The notes beneath the pieces are model-generated. The model did no database searches, was not told the DNA's origin, and saw only the letters and a list, made by a program, of their open reading frames with translations. This document shows, in pieces, positions 27,992 through 33,787 of a stretch of 55,186 nucleotides of DNA (positions are counted from its first letter, which is position 1; every line of letters starts with the position of its first letter). Position numbers and translations under genes: made by a program. Location of the stretch: positions 1 through 55,186 of the forward strand of contig JAUVIS010000001.1 in the NCBI GenBank assembly GCA_030592635.1, written 5' to 3'. This stretch comes from Candidatus Fermentibacteraceae bacterium. GTDB lineage: Bacteria; Fermentibacterota; Fermentibacteria; Fermentibacterales; JCC-6.

Positions 27992-28042
27992 TGAAGGAAC
28001 CTCCCCGTTGTGTATGGTATATTACCTATACAAACCGGGACA

Positions 28043-28059
28043 GTCAATGTTCCATTGAC
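28043..28059 (+). promoter_or_regulatory. Perfect 7-3-7 palindrome immediately upstream of the RiPP operon SD (possible operator)
   Basis: GTCAATG-ttc-CATTGAC at 28043-28059, followed directly by GGGAG (28060-28064) and the ATG at 28070. Confidence 0.3.
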
Positions 28060-28069
28060 GGGAGCAGAC

Positions 28070-28324
28070 ATGGCAAAGCTTGAATATGCCAGAGGTGTGG
28101 TGTTCAGAAGAGAACCCGCAGGCGGCATTCTTTTTAACATCGATACAGGAAATCTCCAGGTAACCGAAGGAGTTGCCTTCGGCATCTGCGATATGATAGA
28201 CAACGGAAAAGACAGAGAAAGCATTCTTCTGGAATTGCGGAATCACTACCCGGCGGAAGAGAATCTGGAAGAAGATCTTGATGATTTTGTCAGAGAACTC
28301 AGGGAAAAAGGTGCTCTGGCTTGA
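28070..28324 (+). CDS. PqqD-family peptide-binding protein (RiPP recognition element)
   Basis: 84 aa. FRREPAGGILFNIDTGNLQVTEGVAFGICDMIDNGKDRESILLELRNHYP..EEDLDDFVRELREKGAL matches the PqqD pattern. The ATG follows a GGGAG SD. The stop overlaps the next start. Confidence 0.8.
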   Translation: MAKLEYARGVVFRREPAGGILFNIDTGNLQVTEGVAFGICDMIDNGKDRESILLELRNHYPAEENLEEDLDDFVRELREKGALA

Positions 28325-29370
28325 GTACTCCCTACTGGGTTTCTCCCCGGGAAGCCAACCTGCTTATTACAGGCGGGTGCAACCTTCGATGCAGACACTG
28401 CTCCGTGACCAGTCACGGTGACCTGGATACCGACCTTCCTCTTTCCATGTGGATAGATATCCTGGATGAACTCAAGAGGAGTAAGCTTATCAAACTCACC
28501 ATTACAGGCGGAGAACCCCTGTACAGACCGGATTTTCATGAGTTTCTAGCAGAGGTTTACAAAAGACCTTTCAGGTACTCTATCAATACCAATGGAACTC
28601 TGATAACACCGTCTATCATTGAAACGGTAAAAAAATATTCATCCAGACTCAATGATGTTATGGTCAGTCTTGATGGCCCCGATGCGAAGACCTTTGACAG
28701 TCAGAGGGGTGAAGGCGTTTTTGAGAAAATGGTTATGGGTGTAAAAATGCTCAAAACGGCAAAACTCCCCTTCGGCTTCTACTGTACGGTAACAAGTCTC
28801 AATGTGGAAAAACTGAACGAAACAGCCGGGTTCGCTCTTTCTCTTGGCGCCCACTGGATAAAATTCAACAATTTTCTCCTTGCGGGTCCAGCCCTCAACA
28901 GCTCTATGATTCCGGAGCCTGCCGAAGTCATTAATGCCACCGAAAAGCTCAGCATTCTCGCGGGAAAGCATCCGGACAAAATTCAGGGCACCATTCTTGA
29001 TATTCGTGAAAGAGCGCTTGAATACAAGAACGGCAAACTCAGCAGAACAAAGGGCAGAGCTTATTCATGCGGTGCCGGTAAAGGCAAAATTGCAATTTTC
29101 CCCGATGGAAGAGTCACTCCCTGCGACCATCTTCCTGATTTAACCCTGGGCAACATCACCATTCAGTCGCTTGAAGATATTGTCACGGGAAAAGAAATGA
29201 AAAAATTCTCAGAATTTATGGATCAGTCCCGAGAAGACTATCCTCAATGTAAAAACTGCCGGTACATCAGTTACTGCAGTGGAGGCTGTCCTGTTGAGCC
29301 ACTGAGCAGAAACGATAAAATCGGTTTTGACAGACACTCCTGCCTGAAAGTCGCACTGGGAGAACAATGA
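28321..29370 (+). CDS. Radical SAM/SPASM domain peptide maturase 1
   Basis: CNLRCRHC (CxxxCxxC) near the N-terminus and GGEPL. The C-terminal SPASM Cys set is SCGAGKGKIAIFPDGRVTPC ... CKNCRYISYCSGGCP ... HSC. TTG start with a 4-nt overlap with the PqqD-like gene. Confidence 0.9.
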   Translation: MSTPYWVSPREANLLITGGCNLRCRHCSVTSHGDLDTDLPLSMWIDILDELKRSKLIKLTITGGEPLYRPDFHEFLAEVYKRPFRYSINTNGTLITPSIIETVKKYSSRLNDVMVSLDGPDAKTFDSQRGEGVFEKMVMGVKMLKTAKLPFGFYCTVTSLNVEKLNETAGFALSLGAHWIKFNNFLLAGPALNSSMIPEPAEVINATEKLSILAGKHPDKIQGTILDIRERALEYKNGKLSRTKGRAYSCGAGKGKIAIFPDGRVTPCDHLPDLTLGNITIQSLEDIVTGKEMKKFSEFMDQSREDYPQCKNCRYISYCSGGCPVEPLSRNDKIGFDRHSCLKVALGEQ

Positions 29371-30404
29371 CATCACAACTTCCAACCCCGCGCGTTCTCT
29401 ATATCAATCCAGCCGACGGCTGTAATCTTCACTGCAAGCACTGCTGGGTGAATGAAGGCTCACGAACTGGAAAACTTCTCTCTCTGGAACAGTGGAAAGA
29501 TCTGCTTACTCAGGCAAAAGCACTGGGTGCCGGGTATGTAAAGCTCACTGGAGGAGAGCCCTTACTCTACAAAGATATCGTTCCTCTGTACCGATTCACC
29601 GCGGATATCTTTCCCCAGGTTGCCATTGAGACAAATGGAACACTTCAACCTGATGGCTTGTGGGAGACTTTCCTCAACAAGAAGCCGTTTCACGTATCAG
29701 TAAGCATTGACAGCGCCAACCCGGATATTCATGATGAATTCAGAGGGGGAACTGATGCCTGGAAAAAAACTGTAGCATTCGCAAAAAAACTGGTTGAACA
29801 CGGGATTAACAATCAGGTGATAATGTCAATAGCGGATTTAAGGAGACAACCTGTTAAAGATATGGCCAGGCTGGTTGAAAAGCTGGGAGTTTCCACGCTG
29901 AAAATTAATTTCATTATTCCGTCGGGCCGTGGAAAAAACAATAATTTTTCCCGGAACAGCCCTATCAAAGAAATTCTGGATTTTATAGCCTGGATCCATG
30001 AAGAGATGCCGGACTGGGTGCTGCCATCAGTTCCGGCCGCCCTTCTTCCTGTAAATCACCTGAAGAAACTTGGCTACTGTCCTGTGAGAAATCTCATGGG
30101 TGTTCTTCCCGATGGCATCTTTTCTCTATGCGGAGTAGCATTCTCAAGGAAAGATATGGCATGGGGAAAATTCCCGGAAACCTCTGTACAGGAAGCATGG
30201 GAAAACTCACCTGTTTACAGAATGATCAGGTCTTCTGTTCCCGGGCATCTTGAAGGGGTGTGCCGCAGGTGCATGCATAAAAACTCATGCGCGGGCAGAT
30301 GCGTGGTGAATAATCTGGAAACGGGTGGATCCATTACCAGCCCTGATATTCTCTGCCAGAGAGCATATGACGCCGGCCTTTTCCCGGAAACAAGGCTGCT
30401 GTGA
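29367..30404 (+). CDS. Radical SAM/SPASM domain peptide maturase 2
   Basis: CNLHCKHC cluster and GGEPL. C-terminal Cys-rich auxiliary-cluster region YCPVRN...LCGVAF...CRRCMHKNSCAGRC...LCQ. ATGA overlap with maturase 1. Confidence 0.9.
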   Translation: MTSQLPTPRVLYINPADGCNLHCKHCWVNEGSRTGKLLSLEQWKDLLTQAKALGAGYVKLTGGEPLLYKDIVPLYRFTADIFPQVAIETNGTLQPDGLWETFLNKKPFHVSVSIDSANPDIHDEFRGGTDAWKKTVAFAKKLVEHGINNQVIMSIADLRRQPVKDMARLVEKLGVSTLKINFIIPSGRGKNNNFSRNSPIKEILDFIAWIHEEMPDWVLPSVPAALLPVNHLKKLGYCPVRNLMGVLPDGIFSLCGVAFSRKDMAWGKFPETSVQEAWENSPVYRMIRSSVPGHLEGVCRRCMHKNSCAGRCVVNNLETGGSITSPDILCQRAYDAGLFPETRLL

Positions 30405-30934
30405 AAGAGGAGCAGAGATTCCTTTTCAGAGCGCAGACCAGAGCGGTTCTGCCACGGGGGGTAGTTCTCCACGGCTCCTCAGTTGAGCAGCATGGAAATG
30501 CTGTTGTTTTCCTGGCACCCTCCGGTGGAGGAAAATCCACTATCGCGATCAATCTGGCGCAAAAGGACTTTTTCCTTCTCGCGGATGACACGATCATTGT
30601 TGCCGACGGCAGTGATGAGATTACAAGATGTCTTCCCTGCGGGACTTTGAAACTCACAACCGGTATTGATAATATTCGCCCGGCAAACTTGAAAGCCTTC
30701 ATATTTCTTGAGAAGGGCGACCGGACTGCTCTTGTAAAACTGACCTGGGAATACGCCACATACAGGGCAATCAGAACAGAATCAATAATCGCTGTTCCTG
30801 ATCTGCATGTAAAGGAAAGGGAACAGGTAAGACTGTACCTTAAGAGGTTGTTCAAAGCATTTCCATCCTTCATCCTGAGATACTCCCTGAGAACTGACCC
30901 GTCAGAATTCATCAGGGAGTTATTGCAGAGTTGA
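30401..30934 (+). CDS. HPr kinase/phosphorylase-like P-loop protein (C-terminal-domain type)
   Basis: LHGSSVEQHGNAVVFLAPSGGGKSTIAINLAQKDFFLLADDTIIV parallels the HprK catalytic-domain pattern (LHG..V...G.GVL..G.SG.GKS..AL.L...GH.L.ADD). It overlaps the stop of maturase 2. Confidence 0.7.
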   Translation: MKEEQRFLFRAQTRAVLPRGVVLHGSSVEQHGNAVVFLAPSGGGKSTIAINLAQKDFFLLADDTIIVADGSDEITRCLPCGTLKLTTGIDNIRPANLKAFIFLEKGDRTALVKLTWEYATYRAIRTESIIAVPDLHVKEREQVRLYLKRLFKAFPSFILRYSLRTDPSEFIRELLQS

Positions 30935-30938
30935 TCTT

Positions 30939-31325
30939 TTGATCAGGGGGTGGGTAAAGGGTTTCTCCATGTTTCCGAATCTGATACCCGGTGACATTCT
31001 TTCCGCAACAGAAATCAAAGCTTTTGATCTTCGACCCGGCATGATAACAGTTTTCCGTGATGAGGATGGGAAAAACCCTGTTGTCCACAGGGTAAGATGT
31101 ATCAGGAACTTAAACAGTGAGCTGCTTATTGCAACAGCAGGAGACAACTCCGGAAATGATGCGCGTGTGAGAAGAATTGCTGTTGATTGTTCTGTTACTG
31201 TTGTGAGCGGGGTATTGAGGAAGGGAAGGTACAGAAAGATTACTCATTTTACTCCGGTAAGTCCGCTCAATCGAAGGCTCGTAATGCGGGTTTACCGTTT
31301 TGTTGTCAAATTTTTCTTCTGGTAG
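30939..31325 (+). CDS. S24/S26-family Ser peptidase, SipW/Sec11-like (S26B) motif set, no N-terminal membrane anchor
   Basis: GFSMFPNLIPGDIL (Ser box), VVHRV (His box) and TAGDNSGND (GDN box). The TTG start lies 4 nt after the previous stop, and the upstream frame has no alternative canonical start. Confidence 0.7.
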   Translation: MIRGWVKGFSMFPNLIPGDILSATEIKAFDLRPGMITVFRDEDGKNPVVHRVRCIRNLNSELLIATAGDNSGNDARVRRIAVDCSVTVVSGVLRKGRYRKITHFTPVSPLNRRLVMRVYRFVVKFFFW

Positions 31326-31350
31326 TATTATTGTGCGCGGAGGTAAAGTA

Positions 31351-31608
31351 ATGATTTTTTTTCCGAACGAATACGCAAAGCCCAGGCTGCTGGGCATTGT
31401 TGAAGCATCAGAATTCGGGTGGGGCGCTGTCTGTTCTATTGGCAATGATGCCGCTGGGGGTGGCAGCGTGTGCTCAACTGGTAATGGAGCCGGAAAAACC
31501 ACTCCAATCTGTGTTGGAGGCGGTTCCGCCGCAAAAGGCGATGTTTACCGCAGGACTTCCGATTCTGAAAGACTGTTTAATGTAGACGACATGAGTCACG
31601 GTCTTTAG
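31351..31608 (+). CDS. Candidate RiPP precursor peptide, copy 1 (85 aa, Cys/Gly-rich)
   Basis: GGAGG SD 7 nt before the ATG at 31351. The product is MIFFPNEYAKPRLLGIVEASEFGWGAVCSIGNDAAGGGSVCSTGNGAGKTTPICVGGGSAAKGDVYRRTSDSERLFNVDDMSHGL. Its substitution pattern against copy 2 is dominated by synonymous third-position changes in this frame. Confidence 0.7.
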   Translation: MIFFPNEYAKPRLLGIVEASEFGWGAVCSIGNDAAGGGSVCSTGNGAGKTTPICVGGGSAAKGDVYRRTSDSERLFNVDDMSHGL

Positions 31609-31778
31609 ATCGGGTTCTTCTCTTTAAAACAGCCAGAGCGCCCAGTCCGGGAAACACACTGAGCCGGGAGAGCTATTCTGCTCTTTACGGGAAGTGCCCG
31701 ATCAAAGCCGGGAGAACCATACCAACGAACATTATAGTGCGGATTTGCCGTTTCGTTGTCAAATTTCTCTTCCGGTAG
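31609..31778. pseudogene. Relics of both flanking genes between the two precursor copies
   Basis: 31609-31672 matches 32065-32128, the 3' end of the membrane gene. 31675-31720 matches 32565-32611, an internal piece of the same gene. About 31722-31778 matches 31268-31325, the 3' end of the peptidase gene including its TAG. Confidence 0.6.
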
Positions 31779-31803
31779 TATTATTGTTTGTGGAGGTACT
31801 GTA

Positions 31804-32064
31804 ATGAGTTTTTTCCCGGATAAATACACGAAACCTGAGTTGCTGAGCATTGTTGAGGCTTCAGAGTTCGGGTGGGGTGCTGTTTGTTCACTTGGCAATG
31901 ATGCCGCTGAGGGTGGCAGCGTGTGCTCAACTGGTAATGGAGCCGGAAAAACCACTCCAATTTGTCTTGGAGGCGGTTCGGCGTCGGGCAAAGGCGATGT
32001 TTACTACAGAACTGCCGATTCTGAAAGGCTGTTTAATGTGGACGACATGAGTCACGGTCTTTAG
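31804..32064 (+). CDS. Candidate RiPP precursor peptide, copy 2 (86 aa)
   Basis: GGAGG SD 7 nt before the ATG at 31804. The product is MSFFPDKYTKPELLSIVEASEFGWGAVCSLGNDAAEGGSVCSTGNGAGKTTPICLGGGSASGKGDVYYRTADSERLFNVDDMSHGL. Confidence 0.7.
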   Translation: MSFFPDKYTKPELLSIVEASEFGWGAVCSLGNDAAEGGSVCSTGNGAGKTTPICLGGGSASGKGDVYYRTADSERLFNVDDMSHGL

Positions 32065-32065
32065 A

Positions 32066-32983
32066 TCATGCTCTTTTCTTTAAAACAGCCAGTGCGCCCA
32101 GACCGAGAAATACACTGAACCAGAGAGTGGCGAACCTCATCAGCAGGGTTGTCACTGTTGCTGTGGCTGCCGGAAGGTAGTCGCATAATATCCCGTCGAT
32201 TGTCACTTCTGTTAATCCAAGTCCACCGGGTATCATTGATACCGCGCCTGCCACGCTGCCCGCGGCGTGTGATAAAAGGGCTGCGCCCGGTGGAAGGCTG
32301 TAACCCATGGAGGCTGCCACCACGCACAGTACAAGCGCCTCTATTCCCCATGATATCATGCCGATGGGTACAGATACCGCGAGACTCTCTGCGTCCAGGA
32401 GGGTCATTGCCGCGTTTCTGAAATCATCAAACAGGTGCTTTCTTTTCTCAAGGAATGGAATTTTGTGAGCTATCTTTGAGAAAAGGTTCCAGGCCCGTCT
32501 GTTCATAAGGACAAACATTGCCAGTGCGACAAATACCGCTCCGGCGGCAGCGGCTGGAAGAGCGATTCTGCTCTTTACGAGAAGTGCCCCGATCAAAGCC
32601 AGGAGTACCATGCTTATCAGGTCTGTAAGCCTCTCGGCGACCACAATGGAACTTGTTTTCTCGATTGGAATTCCCCTTCGGCTTTTAAGAAGACTGCATT
32701 TGATGAGTTCACCCATTTTACCGGGGGAAACAGTCATGGAAAAGCCCGCGATAAACACCAGGAAACTCTCCTTCAGCGGCACCTTCTCTTTTACTCTGTG
32801 AAGAAAGTACTGCCACTTGATAAACCTGATCCCGTAGTTGAGCAGTGGAAGGATAAGAAAAAACGGTATCCACTTCGGATTAATGGAGTCCGCTGCTGAA
32901 ATTACCTTCCGTATATCTGAGTGGAGTACAAGAACCGTGTAAAGGACAATGGCGATAACAATGCCCCATATGGCCTTCTTCAT
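32066..32983 (-). CDS. Polytopic membrane protein, UPF0104 / LPG-synthase-TM (flippase-like) family
   Basis: 305 aa with about 8 hydrophobic segments. The N-terminal pattern (KKAIWGIVIAIVLYTVLV...IRFIKWQYFL) and overall layout are recalled as typical of the flippase-like domain family. It is convergent with precursor copy 2, with 1 nt between the stops. Confidence 0.75.
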   Translation of the reverse strand: MKKAIWGIVIAIVLYTVLVLHSDIRKVISAADSINPKWIPFFLILPLLNYGIRFIKWQYFLHRVKEKVPLKESFLVFIAGFSMTVSPGKMGELIKCSLLKSRRGIPIEKTSSIVVAERLTDLISMVLLALIGALLVKSRIALPAAAAGAVFVALAMFVLMNRRAWNLFSKIAHKIPFLEKRKHLFDDFRNAAMTLLDAESLAVSVPIGMISWGIEALVLCVVAASMGYSLPPGAALLSHAAGSVAGAVSMIPGGLGLTEVTIDGILCDYLPAATATVTTLLMRFATLWFSVFLGLGALAVLKKRA

Positions 32984-32986
32984 AAC

Positions 32987-33787
32987 TCAGATCTTTACCT
33001 TTTCGCCGACTATCGCCAGGAGTTCCTGCTGAAGCTTCTCTGTGCCCGGCTGCTTGTCCAGCGTCTTCAGTGCCTTTGTTGCAAGTCTCTTTGCTTCACC
33101 GTTATCCTTGAGTTTAACTGAGCATCTTGCGGCAAGACCAAAAGCCTGGGCTTTGCCCATTCTGGTTATTGGAGTATCAGGAAGCAACTCTGCCGAAGTC
33201 ATGGCACTGGCTCTGGCTCTGGAATACTCTTTACGCTTCATGTGAAGCATGGCAAGGTTGAGATAGACCCCGCTTTTCCCGGCGCCCTCTCGCTGTTCAA
33301 GAGCTTCCTCCAGAAGTTGTTCCGCCTCATCAAGCCTCTCATTCATATTGATGAGAAGACCGGCGAGATTGACCTTCATTGTTCCTTCAAGCTTCGGATC
33401 TTTTTCCATGGCCTGTCTGTAAAACTTTTCCGCGTTTTCGTTCTGCCCTTTCTGCTGGGCAATGTAAGCCATCTGAGCCAGTGCGGTTCCGCTGCTGTCT
33501 CCGGCATCCATGGCTTCCACAACAATCTTCCCGGCTTTCTCTGTCGCTCCGCTTCGAATAAAGTAGAAAACCAGAGCATTGGTCAACGGGCAGGCAACAC
33601 TCTTCCTGTTCCTGTTCACCTCAAGATAGTCTATCATGTCCTGAACATTTCCCCCGGCAGCCATTTTAGCCGCTTTCTGAAGCTGTCTCTGTTTCCAGAC
33701 GGGAGATTTAAGCAGTCTGTATCCGAGAAAAACTGCTGCTGCCAGGCAGACCCCGACTACCGCAAAAAGAAGATTTTCCATTCCCAT
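32987..33787 (-). CDS. Membrane-anchored TPR repeat protein
   Basis: N-terminal TM segment (LLFAVVGVCLAAAVFLGY) followed by TPR-like repeats (AQMAYIAQQKGQNENAEKFYRQAMEKDP...). Confidence 0.75.
   Translation of the reverse strand: MGMENLLFAVVGVCLAAAVFLGYRLLKSPVWKQRQLQKAAKMAAGGNVQDMIDYLEVNRNRKSVACPLTNALVFYFIRSGATEKAGKIVVEAMDAGDSSGTALAQMAYIAQQKGQNENAEKFYRQAMEKDPKLEGTMKVNLAGLLINMNERLDEAEQLLEEALEQREGAGKSGVYLNLAMLHMKRKEYSRARASAMTSAELLPDTPITRMGKAQAFGLAARCSVKLKDNGEAKRLATKALKTLDKQPGTEKLQQELLAIVGEKVKI

Follow-up and report, generated by a model that had tools for sequence, protein, structure and literature searches.

The locus studied here holds two tandem copies of a short precursor gene in a peptide-modification cluster, which raises the question of how the second copy arose and whether both copies are kept. 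It lies in a window of 55,186 nt (the whole stretch of DNA that was analysed), which is a complete 55-kb contig of a MAG from Ca. Sabulitectum (Fermentibacteraceae). The genes concerned are the following:

30939–31325, plus strand: S26/SipW-like peptidase gene (128 aa, without membrane anchor)
31351–31608, plus strand: precursor copy 1 (pre1; 85 aa, intact, SD GGAGGT)
31804–32064, plus strand: precursor copy 2 (pre2; 86 aa, intact, SD GGAGGT)
32066–32983, minus strand: convergent flippase-like membrane gene (LPG_synthase_TM / TIGR00374), functional (Pfam PF03706, E 1e-49)

Genetic context of the two precursors

The cluster encodes a PqqD-like protein, two radical SAM/SPASM enzymes, an HprK-related P-loop protein and the S26-like peptidase, with the Pfam domains PF04055 and PF13186 found in two proteins and PF05402 (PqqD-type) in one. 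A short Cys-containing precursor therefore lies beside radical SAM/SPASM maturases and a PqqD-type recognition protein, as expected of genes for a radical SAM/SPASM-modified RiPP, and the putative product would be a sactipeptide or ranthipeptide-like RiPP. This gene content is shared with the SynChlorMet cassette (TIGR04249 ScmC, TIGR04250 ScmE, TIGR04251 ScmF), relative to which the S26-like peptidase is an addition. The best matches of the two radical SAM/SPASM enzymes are ScmE and ScmF, with 168.6 bits against a curated cut-off of 400 for ScmE, 231.3 against 400 for ScmF and, for ScmC, 23.1 against 125. Judged by these matches, the locus is a SynChlorMet-related radical SAM/SPASM peptide-modification cluster that stays well under the SynChlorMet cut-offs.

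The peptidase gene matched NCBIfam TIGR02228 signal peptidase I with 46.2 bits (E 4e-12; cut-off 51.85), and its orthologue in G037, the closest relative, is equally long and similarly placed. Orthologues of the flippase-like gene in Ca. Sabulitectum MAGs are 84–91% identical. For the precursor family, no model was found in NCBIfam or Pfam.

The spacer is a mosaic of pieces of both neighbouring genes

An earlier note on this DNA had read the spacer between the precursors as a mosaic of neighbouring gene pieces and had proposed a self-comparison by BLASTN as a check. By running blastn on positions 31000–33100 against themselves, we recovered its three homology blocks at the positions given there or within a few bases of them. 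First, 31282–31665 aligned with 31735–32121 over 387 columns at 85.5% identity with one 3-nt gap (E 5e-128), and this main block spans the peptidase tail, the SD, the precursor and the tail of the membrane gene. Second, 31663–31720 aligned with 32553–32611 over 59 columns at 88% identity (E 1e-15), the two HSPs overlapping at 31663–31665. A separate repeat search recovered identical blocks, whose starts are 453/456 and 890/891 nt apart. The blocks are colinear and in direct orientation, and the copies are adjacent and head-to-tail. The spacer is composed as follows:

31609–31665, minus strand: relic of the 3' end (~18 codons) of the flippase-like gene, 85% identical to 32065–32121, stop TGA changed to CGA
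31663–31720, minus strand: relic from the interior of the flippase-like gene (codons for MVLLALIGALLVKSRIALPA), in which a 1-nt deletion has led to a stop
31663–31672, no strand: deletion or template-switch junction, a 10-nt zone (GCCGGGAGAG) alignable to both parental sites
31721–31734, no strand: tandem-duplication junction, 14 nt of uncertain origin with weak similarity to 31268–31281
31735–31778, plus strand: peptidase-tail copy (last 14 codons and TAG), 86% identical to 31282–31325, non-coding and without a start

The sources of the two relic pieces in the flippase-like gene are 32065–32121 and 32553–32611, and the part between them (32122–32552, about 435 nt) is missing from the relic. 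The block offsets likewise put the loss between the membrane-tail and internal blocks at 434–435 nt, in agreement with the internal deletion of ~435 bp that had been proposed. The deletion junction had been placed in a short G/A-rich similarity, where we also found it: the parental sequences ACCAGAGAG (32119–32127) and GCTGGAAGAG (32553–32562) have an exact AGAG in common and match at roughly 7/10 overall. The chance of a microhomology of at least 4 nt is ~0.016, as calculated from (k+1)(1/4)^k(3/4)^2.

At the other new join, the internal membrane-gene piece runs up to 31720, and the copy of the peptidase tail begins no later than 31735. This copy had been given as 31722–31778; it is clear from 31735 (corresponding to 31282) onwards, whereas 31722–31734 matches 31268–31281 weakly and only with two indels. 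No clear microhomology is seen at the duplication junction (31721–31734), whose left boundary can be placed only to within about 14 nt; on its left side, the duplicated unit begins with the final 44–58 nt of the peptidase gene. An SD-ATG context, GGAGGTA-N4-GTAATG, is common to both copies.

Same-genus relatives carry a single precursor

The earlier note had predicted a single-copy state in relatives. In line with this, we found exactly one precursor match in each of 15 same-genus genomes, and none in three; in the 2.35-Mb assembly itself, there is no third precursor copy anywhere. The locus of G037, which was fully read, has the order radical SAM, HprK-like, peptidase, one precursor, convergent membrane gene and TPR. 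In the loci examined, the precursor is flanked by the S26-like peptidase gene and by the convergent flippase-like gene, and in most of them the stop of the precursor is −4 to +3 nt away from that of the membrane gene. Since same-genus relatives have a single precursor, the duplication is lineage-specific. A horizontal origin of the second precursor was rejected, as it is flanked by copies of the neighbouring local genes.

An undeleted intermediate was found neither in 60 family genomes, nor in a 5.8-billion-protein collection, nor in JGI metagenomes, and the collections searched yielded no single-copy genome of the same species. The only homologues in the 5.8-billion-protein collection were the window's own two precursors. 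A scan of JGI metagenomes with an alignment of pre1, pre2 and G037 gave no match, nor did a related-locus search of genome contigs with pre1. Tandem precursor pairs are also present in two further Fermentibacteraceae genomes, G015 (L021/L049) and G055 (L074). No recognisable neighbour-gene fragments were found in these pairs, because their duplications are older.

A tandem duplication and a microhomology deletion probably produced the two copies

Since colinear pieces of both neighbours lie in the spacer in the right order and orientation, a local tandem duplication is the sole reading that fits, and we are highly confident that it is real. As a whole, the best explanation is a tandem duplication that was followed by a microhomology deletion, which we regard as probable. 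We infer the order of events and the mechanism as follows. In the ancestor, the S26-like peptidase gene and the convergent flippase-like gene would have tightly enclosed one precursor, the 3' end of the peptidase gene bearing the promoter-like element of the precursor (described below) and the flippase-like stop abutting the precursor stop. A local tandem duplication of roughly 0.89 kb, from ~31268–31282 to the equivalent of 32611, would have come first. The left copy would then have held a useless 547-nt fragment of the membrane gene, from which an illegitimate deletion would have removed about 435 nt, with its junction at the short G/A-rich microhomology in which AGAG is exact. This would have left two precursor genes and a separate promoter-like element for each of them. 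With such tight packing, a copy that retains promoter, RBS and full ORF must include pieces of both neighbours; since the promoter-like element is inside the upstream gene and the stop touches the downstream gene, a clean duplication of a working cassette is impossible.

The same final structure is predicted by a one-step origin, in which serial template switches occur during one replicative event (MMBIR/FoSTeS-like). A tandem duplication of ~0.45 kb would here have received 58 nt of templated filler from 32553–32611 at its junction, with no 0.89-kb intermediate and no later deletion. The microhomology at 31663–31672 is as found in template switches, and the absence of an undeleted intermediate from the collections searched also fits. 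However, the filler continues the membrane tail colinearly and with unchanged orientation, which is exactly the arrangement that a simple internal deletion would leave, while template switches are not restricted in this way. At the second junction (31720/31721), moreover, microhomology is not evident. In bacteria, simple duplication followed by deletion within the unstable duplicates is the commoner route. We consider the one-step origin unlikely and, given a real tandem duplication, we lean towards the two-step route. The earlier proposal of a unit spanning ~550 bp of the membrane gene that was later deleted thus stands as the most parsimonious one, but it is not the only possible one, as two template switches within one replicative event would lead to the same end product.

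The duplicated unit includes a conserved promoter-like element

Upstream of each precursor we found a promoter-like element:

31303–31331, plus strand: promoter-like element P1 (TTGTCA-N17-TATTAT), upstream of pre1
31756–31784, plus strand: promoter-like element P2, hexamers identical to those of P1, with 2 spacer changes

The −35 hexamer of P1 is inside the coding tail of the peptidase gene, and its −10 hexamer directly follows the peptidase TAG, in non-coding DNA 19 nt ahead of the pre1 ATG. The −35 hexamer of P2 is within the peptidase-tail copy (31735–31778). TTGTCA-N17-TATTAT has only these two matches in the 55-kb window. We compared 16 sequences, consisting of both window copies and of genus and family loci: upstream of the precursor, at least 10 of the 12 hexamer positions match in 14 of the 16 (2% of shuffles), and the match is 12/12 in both window copies and two other loci. 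The −35 and −10 hexamers, whose N17 spacer is within the 16–18 nt of the sigma-70 type, are kept at orthologous positions, and on this sequence conservation P1 and P2 may act as promoters. Taken at the level of sequence, a full expression cassette was copied, with promoter-like element, SD and ORF. The neighbour relics had been described as decayed, which is true for the flippase relic but not for the peptidase tail, since the latter carries an intact conserved promoter-like element.

Both precursors are intact and have diverged unevenly

Both precursor copies had been called intact, and indeed their ORFs are without lesions. The pre1 and pre2 proteins are 86% identical, and pre1 is 60% identical to its nearest orthologue. 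Between the two copies, we counted 14 nonsynonymous and 19 synonymous differences (dN/dS 0.19, binomial p = 3e-5). The proposed selection for two precursors therefore holds on average, but pre1 seems more relaxed. With G037 as outgroup, 6 nonsynonymous and 3 synonymous changes were assigned to the pre1 lineage, near the neutral 76:24 expectation, compared to 3 and 9 in the pre2 lineage; this asymmetry is weak (Fisher p about 0.09), and polarisation of synonymous sites is unreliable with an outgroup that is only 60% identical. In addition, the pre1 lineage lost one in-frame codon, and the genus consensus is nearer to pre2 than to pre1. These data suggest that pre1 is more relaxed and pre2 more conservative.

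The near-neutral ratio of changes and the codon loss would also fit copy 1 being a young pseudogene in waiting, with pre1 intact by chance and only copy 2 maintained. Besides the weakness of the asymmetry, several features of pre1 speak against this. First, pre1 has no stop or frameshift, while the adjoining 112-nt relic already has one frameshift. Second, it retains 14/14 invariant and 2 near-invariant residues of the family alignment (A1), in which C28 and C41 are invariant, as is Ala19 in the precursor. Third, its SD and promoter hexamers are intact. Under neutrality, the rough joint probability of the intact features of pre1 is about 0.01–0.02, and we regard a dying copy 1 as improbable.

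Divergence is uneven along the unit, with 78% identity in codons 1–27 and 95% in codons 28–58. The Cys-bearing middle is 95% identical (DNA) and most differences fall within the N-terminal ~15 residues. Synonymous divergence is 0.08 in the near-identical middle vs 0.62 in the first 27 codons, and synonymous differences affect 2/25 sites in the middle vs 17/36 elsewhere (Fisher p = 0.0016, with segment limits that were not fully pre-specified). A 70-nt stretch (31439–31508) has a single mismatch (p = 0.012), and a perfect run of 51 nt has p = 0.022 (permutation). Given this unevenness, one clean event with a uniform clock is too simple. A near-identical tract such as 31439–31508, within a unit otherwise about 15% diverged, gives moderate support for gene conversion between tandem paralogues, a form of concerted evolution of which tuf genes and rRNA operons are examples; the conserved middle may instead reflect constraint on the nucleotide sequence of the core. 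Since the copies differ mainly N-terminally rather than in the Cys-bearing middle, dosage is favoured over product diversification, and the benefit of the duplication would probably be a higher dose of a nearly identical core peptide.

The flippase relic is dead and is predicted to fold into a stem-loop

The flippase relic is dead: its own stop is lost, and its internal piece carries a 1-nt frameshift that leads into a stop. Polarised with G037 as outgroup, 9/10 changes fell on the relic lineage (6/7 in the tail piece and 3/3 in the internal piece). An antisense ORF at 31605–31991 (128 aa) was rejected as a gene, as it is the reverse strand of pre2 continuing into the frameshifted relic.

The two relic pieces together form one further predicted feature:

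31608–31703, plus strand: predicted RNA stem-loop with a 14-bp stem (31608–31622 with 31689–31703), formed from both relic pieces

The predicted fold of 160 nt around the stem has −51.6 kcal/mol (z = −2.5). For the relic, the predicted fold has −40.8 kcal/mol vs −23.4 to −27.9 for a parental proxy, and −40.8 kcal/mol was attained by 0.8% of random placements of the relic substitutions (p about 0.008, post hoc). An Rfam search gave no match within 30900–32400. We also considered an intrinsic terminator in the spacer, for which the scan matches were weak. The strong stem at 31608–31703 is without a following U-run on either strand and is therefore not a classical terminator.

These folds would suit a reading in which the relics are a new intercistronic module, where a deletion-joined, selection-shaped stem-loop and gene-converted Cys cores make up a two-promoter, structured, one-peptide dosage device. 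The stem-loop, right after the pre1 stop, could in such a module be a transcript-stabilising or insulating element. We find this reading unlikely.

Finally, although the MAG is fragmented (235 contigs, 89% completeness), it is highly improbable that a metagenome assembler misjoined strain variants of one locus in tandem, since such a chimera is unable to join the membrane-gene interior to the peptidase tail or to yield a membrane fragment with a ~435-nt internal gap, a frameshift and a lost stop, and since the copies differ at 14.5% of positions, the contig runs >20 kb further on either side, and the longest exact repeat between the copies (51 nt) is below the final k-mer common in metagenome assemblers, so that the assembly graph should not tangle.

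Relation to known duplications

For graspetide loci, tandem duplication of RiPP precursor genes has been described as one of the commonest events (PMC8939145). As in the graspetide/chryseoviridin loci (PMC8939145), a short precursor ORF is doubled head-to-tail beside its maturases with both paralogues intact, and the duplication recurs in related lineages (the two other Fermentibacteraceae genomes). In contrast to those cases, the event in the window is young, with neighbour pieces and both junctions still readable, and the differences between its copies are concentrated in the N-terminal ~15 residues and not in the Cys-bearing middle.

RecA-independent illegitimate duplication and deletion at short microhomologies are known in bacterial genomes. 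The window shares with such events a novel distal-proximal join, a deletion endpoint in a 4-nt exact shared sequence and a decaying fragment. It differs from them in that the peptidase-tail relic falls on a conserved promoter-like element and has been preserved, and in that the substitutions in the flippase relic raise the predicted stability of the RNA stem instead of degrading it randomly.

Multi-precursor lanthipeptide and sactipeptide clusters are also known. The duplication event is ordinary genome evolution and opens no new question, and the locus is a clear but ordinary instance of precursor gain by a cluster. It is an unusually legible case of a RiPP-type cluster acquiring a second precursor, since both junctions, the fragments of the neighbours and the ancestral single-copy state are all still readable. 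The precursor genes of this Fermentibacteraceae cluster were evidently overlooked by gene callers, and TTGTCA-N17-TATTAT provides a marker for them in an uncharacterised peptide-modification cluster found repeatedly among the Fermentibacteraceae loci examined.

Organization of the locus and of the precursor family

The window spans an entire 55-kb contig of a 2.35-Mb MAG (235 contigs, 89% complete), in which the radical SAM/SPASM peptide-modification cluster and its neighbours are arranged as follows.

Genes at the locus
28010-28324 (+), PqqD-like protein
28321-29370 (+), radical SAM/SPASM enzyme, best hit ScmE
29367-30404 (+), radical SAM/SPASM enzyme, best hit ScmF
30401-30934 (+), HprK-related P-loop protein
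30939-31325 (+), S26/SipW-like peptidase, 128 aa
31351-31608 (+), precursor copy 1 (pre1)
31804-32064 (+), precursor copy 2 (pre2)
32066-32983 (-), LPG_synthase_TM / flippase-like gene (the membrane gene)
32987-33787 (-), TPR protein

With 168.6 and 231.3 bits, the ScmE and ScmF matches stay below the cut-offs of 400, and the cluster is thus related to the SynChlorMet cassette without belonging to it; neither pre1 nor pre2 matched any Pfam or NCBIfam model. This uncharacterised cluster recurs in the Fermentibacteraceae loci examined, which is a separate matter from the duplication.

By aligning 17 precursor homologues from across the family, we found 14 invariant residues (F4, P5, Y8, K10, P11, L13, A19, G23, W24, A26, C28, G31, C41 and G44) and a conserved C-terminal RLxNPDDVxxGL; as judged by sequence, the precursors are a real, conserved peptide family. 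A six-frame search detected the precursor in 32 of 60 family genomes, whereas the relatives' ORFs were not found in a collection of 5.8 billion proteins, so that gene callers seem to miss this family. In the same alignment, position 17 holds V, I, S or C in 17/17 homologues and Ala19 (31405-31407 in pre1) never varies, a V-x-A pattern consistent with the specificity of type I signal peptidases; cleavage by the S26-like peptidase may thus follow residue 19 of the precursor. Between species the precursor is hypervariable (34-60% identity to pre1 across aligned homologues, loci L003-L019), the flippase-like protein encoded next to it mostly shows 71-91% identity among Sabulitectum loci, and the most similar membrane protein and the most similar precursor do not occur in the same genomes. 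The sole homologue in Ca. Sabulitectum silens (G033, contig MJAN01000004, 1501-1725; L013) carries an in-frame TAG and is either a pseudogene or affected by a sequencing error.

The spacer between the precursors is a mosaic of both neighbours

Self-comparison of 31000-33100 (blastn, word size 7) returned two direct repeats: 31282-31665 matches 31735-32121 (85.5% identity over 387 columns with one 3-nt gap, E 5e-128) and 31663-31720 matches 32553-32611 (88% identity over 59 columns, E 1e-15), all remaining matches having E >1. A separate repeat search gave identical blocks at offsets of 453/456 and 890/891, which leaves a membrane-gene stretch of 434-435 nt (about 32122-32552) without a counterpart in the spacer. 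The self-blastn recovered, and the repeat search bore out, the homology blocks of the mosaic spacer described in an earlier note, whose coordinates were right to within a few bases.

Composition of the spacer
31609-31665, copy of the membrane-gene tail (base-by-base comparison)
31663-31672, junction zone of 10 nt aligning to both parental sites, AGAG exact
up to 31720, copy of the internal membrane-gene piece (base-by-base comparison)
31721-31734, 14 nt of uncertain origin between the internal membrane-gene copy and the peptidase-tail copy
31735-31778, copy of the peptidase-gene tail, last 14 codons and TAG

At the junction the relic reads GCCGGGAGAG and the parental sites read ACCAGAGAG (32119-32127) and GCTGGAAGAG (32553-32562), with an exact AGAG in common. 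The peptidase-tail copy, previously placed from 31722, holds from 31735, the leftmost 13 nt (31722-31734) being doubtful; 3' of it, the intergenic stretch, SD and ATG repeat those that precede pre1.

The duplication arose in this lineage

Searching the 60 family genomes, we found exactly one precursor match in 15 of the 18 other genomes of the genus and none in 3, and thus the predicted single-copy state is present in relatives. The closest relative (G037, precursor 60% identical to pre1), used as outgroup, has the order rSAM, HprK-like, peptidase, single precursor, convergent membrane gene and TPR, with 3 nt between the precursor and membrane-gene stops. In most of 18 family loci these convergent stops share 4 nt or are separated by 1-4 nt, so that transcripts of the two units must run into each other. 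Since relatives have a single copy and pre1 and pre2 are 86% identical, the duplication took place after the split from all sampled relatives.

Tandem precursor pairs occupy the corresponding position in two other family genomes, G015 (an Aegiribacteria MAG; L021/L049, 1495-1995) and G055 (L074, 2855-3370). No neighbour relics were recognisable at either pair, and both are older than the duplication in the window. That most congeners have one copy or none suggests that these duplications were independent.

Origin of the mosaic

The simplest history, which we consider probable, has two steps. First, a tandem duplication would have copied a unit that starts in the peptidase tail (about 31268-31282), ends at the position equivalent to 32611 and, counted on the single-copy arrangement, measures ~0.89 kb. 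Second, about 435 nt would have been lost within the extra membrane-gene fragment. The deletion endpoint lies within a short G/A-rich similarity, its 4 exact bases of microhomology having a chance probability of about 0.016 (usual formula; our calculation), and the two membrane relic pieces are colinear and in parental orientation, which is what a plain deletion predicts. The two-step history of the earlier note is therefore supported as the simplest, but not as the sole route, because one replicative event in which the template switched twice would yield the identical product. We regard this one-step origin as rather improbable; in its favour, no undeleted intermediate was found in the 60 family genomes, the 5.8-billion-protein collection or JGI metagenomes. 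An assembly artefact is very unlikely, since collapsing or chaining strain variants cannot yield novel junctions, a frameshifted fragment and 14.5% divergence, and the longest exact repeat is just 51 nt.

The membrane relic decays while the promoter-like element is kept

In the membrane relic the stop TGA has become CGA, a 1-nt deletion in the internal piece brings a stop after 11 codons, and 9 of 10 substitutions polarised with G037 fall on the relic lineage; by its sequence, this relic is dead. The decay previously claimed for the co-duplicated fragments is thus found in the membrane relic, but not in the peptidase tail, which holds a promoter-like element with unchanged hexamers.

The spacer RNA is predicted to fold into a stem-loop closed by 14 bp between 31608-31622 (start of the tail relic) and 31689-31703 (internal relic), with z = -2.5. 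Six of 14 relic-lineage changes fall within the stem arms; none breaks a pair, and pairing is gained or strengthened by four of them (A>G and T>G give GGG facing CCC, a bulge disappears with the loss of one C, and a U-G pair becomes C-G through T>C). Predicted folding is -40.8 kcal/mol for the relic vs -23.4 to -27.9 for a parental-sequence proxy; when the same spectrum of substitutions was placed at random, only 0.8% of the simulated sequences reached the relic's value (p about 0.008, post hoc). Relic-lineage substitutions may keep or improve pairing beyond random placement, which is only suggestive because the test was run after the stem was seen. Rfam gave no match at the stem, and a classical terminator was rejected since no U-run follows 3'.

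The promoter-like element, TTGTCA-N17-TATTAT, lies at 31303-31331 and, coinciding with the peptidase-tail copy, at 31756-31784; these are the only matches in the window at up to one mismatch. Its -35 hexamer lies within the last peptidase codons and its -10 hexamer directly after the TAG, with the ATG 19 nt further. Of 16 upstream sequences (both copies in the window and loci from the genus and family), 14 match at least 10 of 12 positions at the corresponding place, with a spacing almost always of 17 nt, compared with 2% for shuffles, and the element is conserved upstream of the precursor in Ca. Sabulitectum and a sister genus (L003-L020). Part of the -35 conservation could come from the conserved C-terminus of the peptidase; the -10 lies in non-coding DNA. 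Spanning the peptidase stop codon as it does, the element suggests that the cluster's last gene is served by a promoter of its own within the gene before it. With both hexamers carried along, the duplicated unit would be a complete expression cassette, for which pieces of both neighbours had to be copied too.

Selection on the two precursors

Between pre1 and pre2 we counted 14 nonsynonymous and 19 synonymous differences (dN 0.076, dS 0.41, ratio 0.19; binomial p = 3e-5 for the synonymous excess). Neither copy has lost any invariant family residue, its SD or its promoter hexamers. When changes were polarised with G037, 6 nonsynonymous and 3 synonymous ones fell on the pre1 lineage, which also lost a codon in frame, and 3 and 9 on the pre2 lineage; with this distant outgroup, that is only a hint that pre1 is the freer copy. 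Together, these data support the selection for two precursors put forward earlier on average and by the intact pre1, but do not prove it for each copy.

Divergence is uneven: identity is 78% in codons 1-27 (synonymous proportion 0.62) and 95% in codons 28-58 (0.08), where the three Cys lie. The latter contain a 51-nt perfect run (permutation p 0.022) and a 70-nt run with one mismatch (p 0.012) over the Cys-bearing core (31439-31508 vs 31892-31961), which may reflect a gene-conversion tract or nucleotide-level constraint. As the cores are nearly identical (I30L, G36E, V55L) and the main differences lie in the first 15 residues, a dosage benefit would fit better than product diversification.

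Thus, the observation is confirmed, and its interpretation is supported with amendments: the duplicated unit took the promoter with it, a one-step route is a less probable alternative and selection looks asymmetric. The further tandem pairs in G015 and G055 indicate that precursor duplication is recurrent. For a different RiPP class, tandem duplication of precursors has been described as one of the commonest events (PMC8939145). The locus is thus a well-preserved case in which two textbook processes, tandem duplication and microhomology-associated deletion, have acted on a target of known kind, a RiPP precursor gene.
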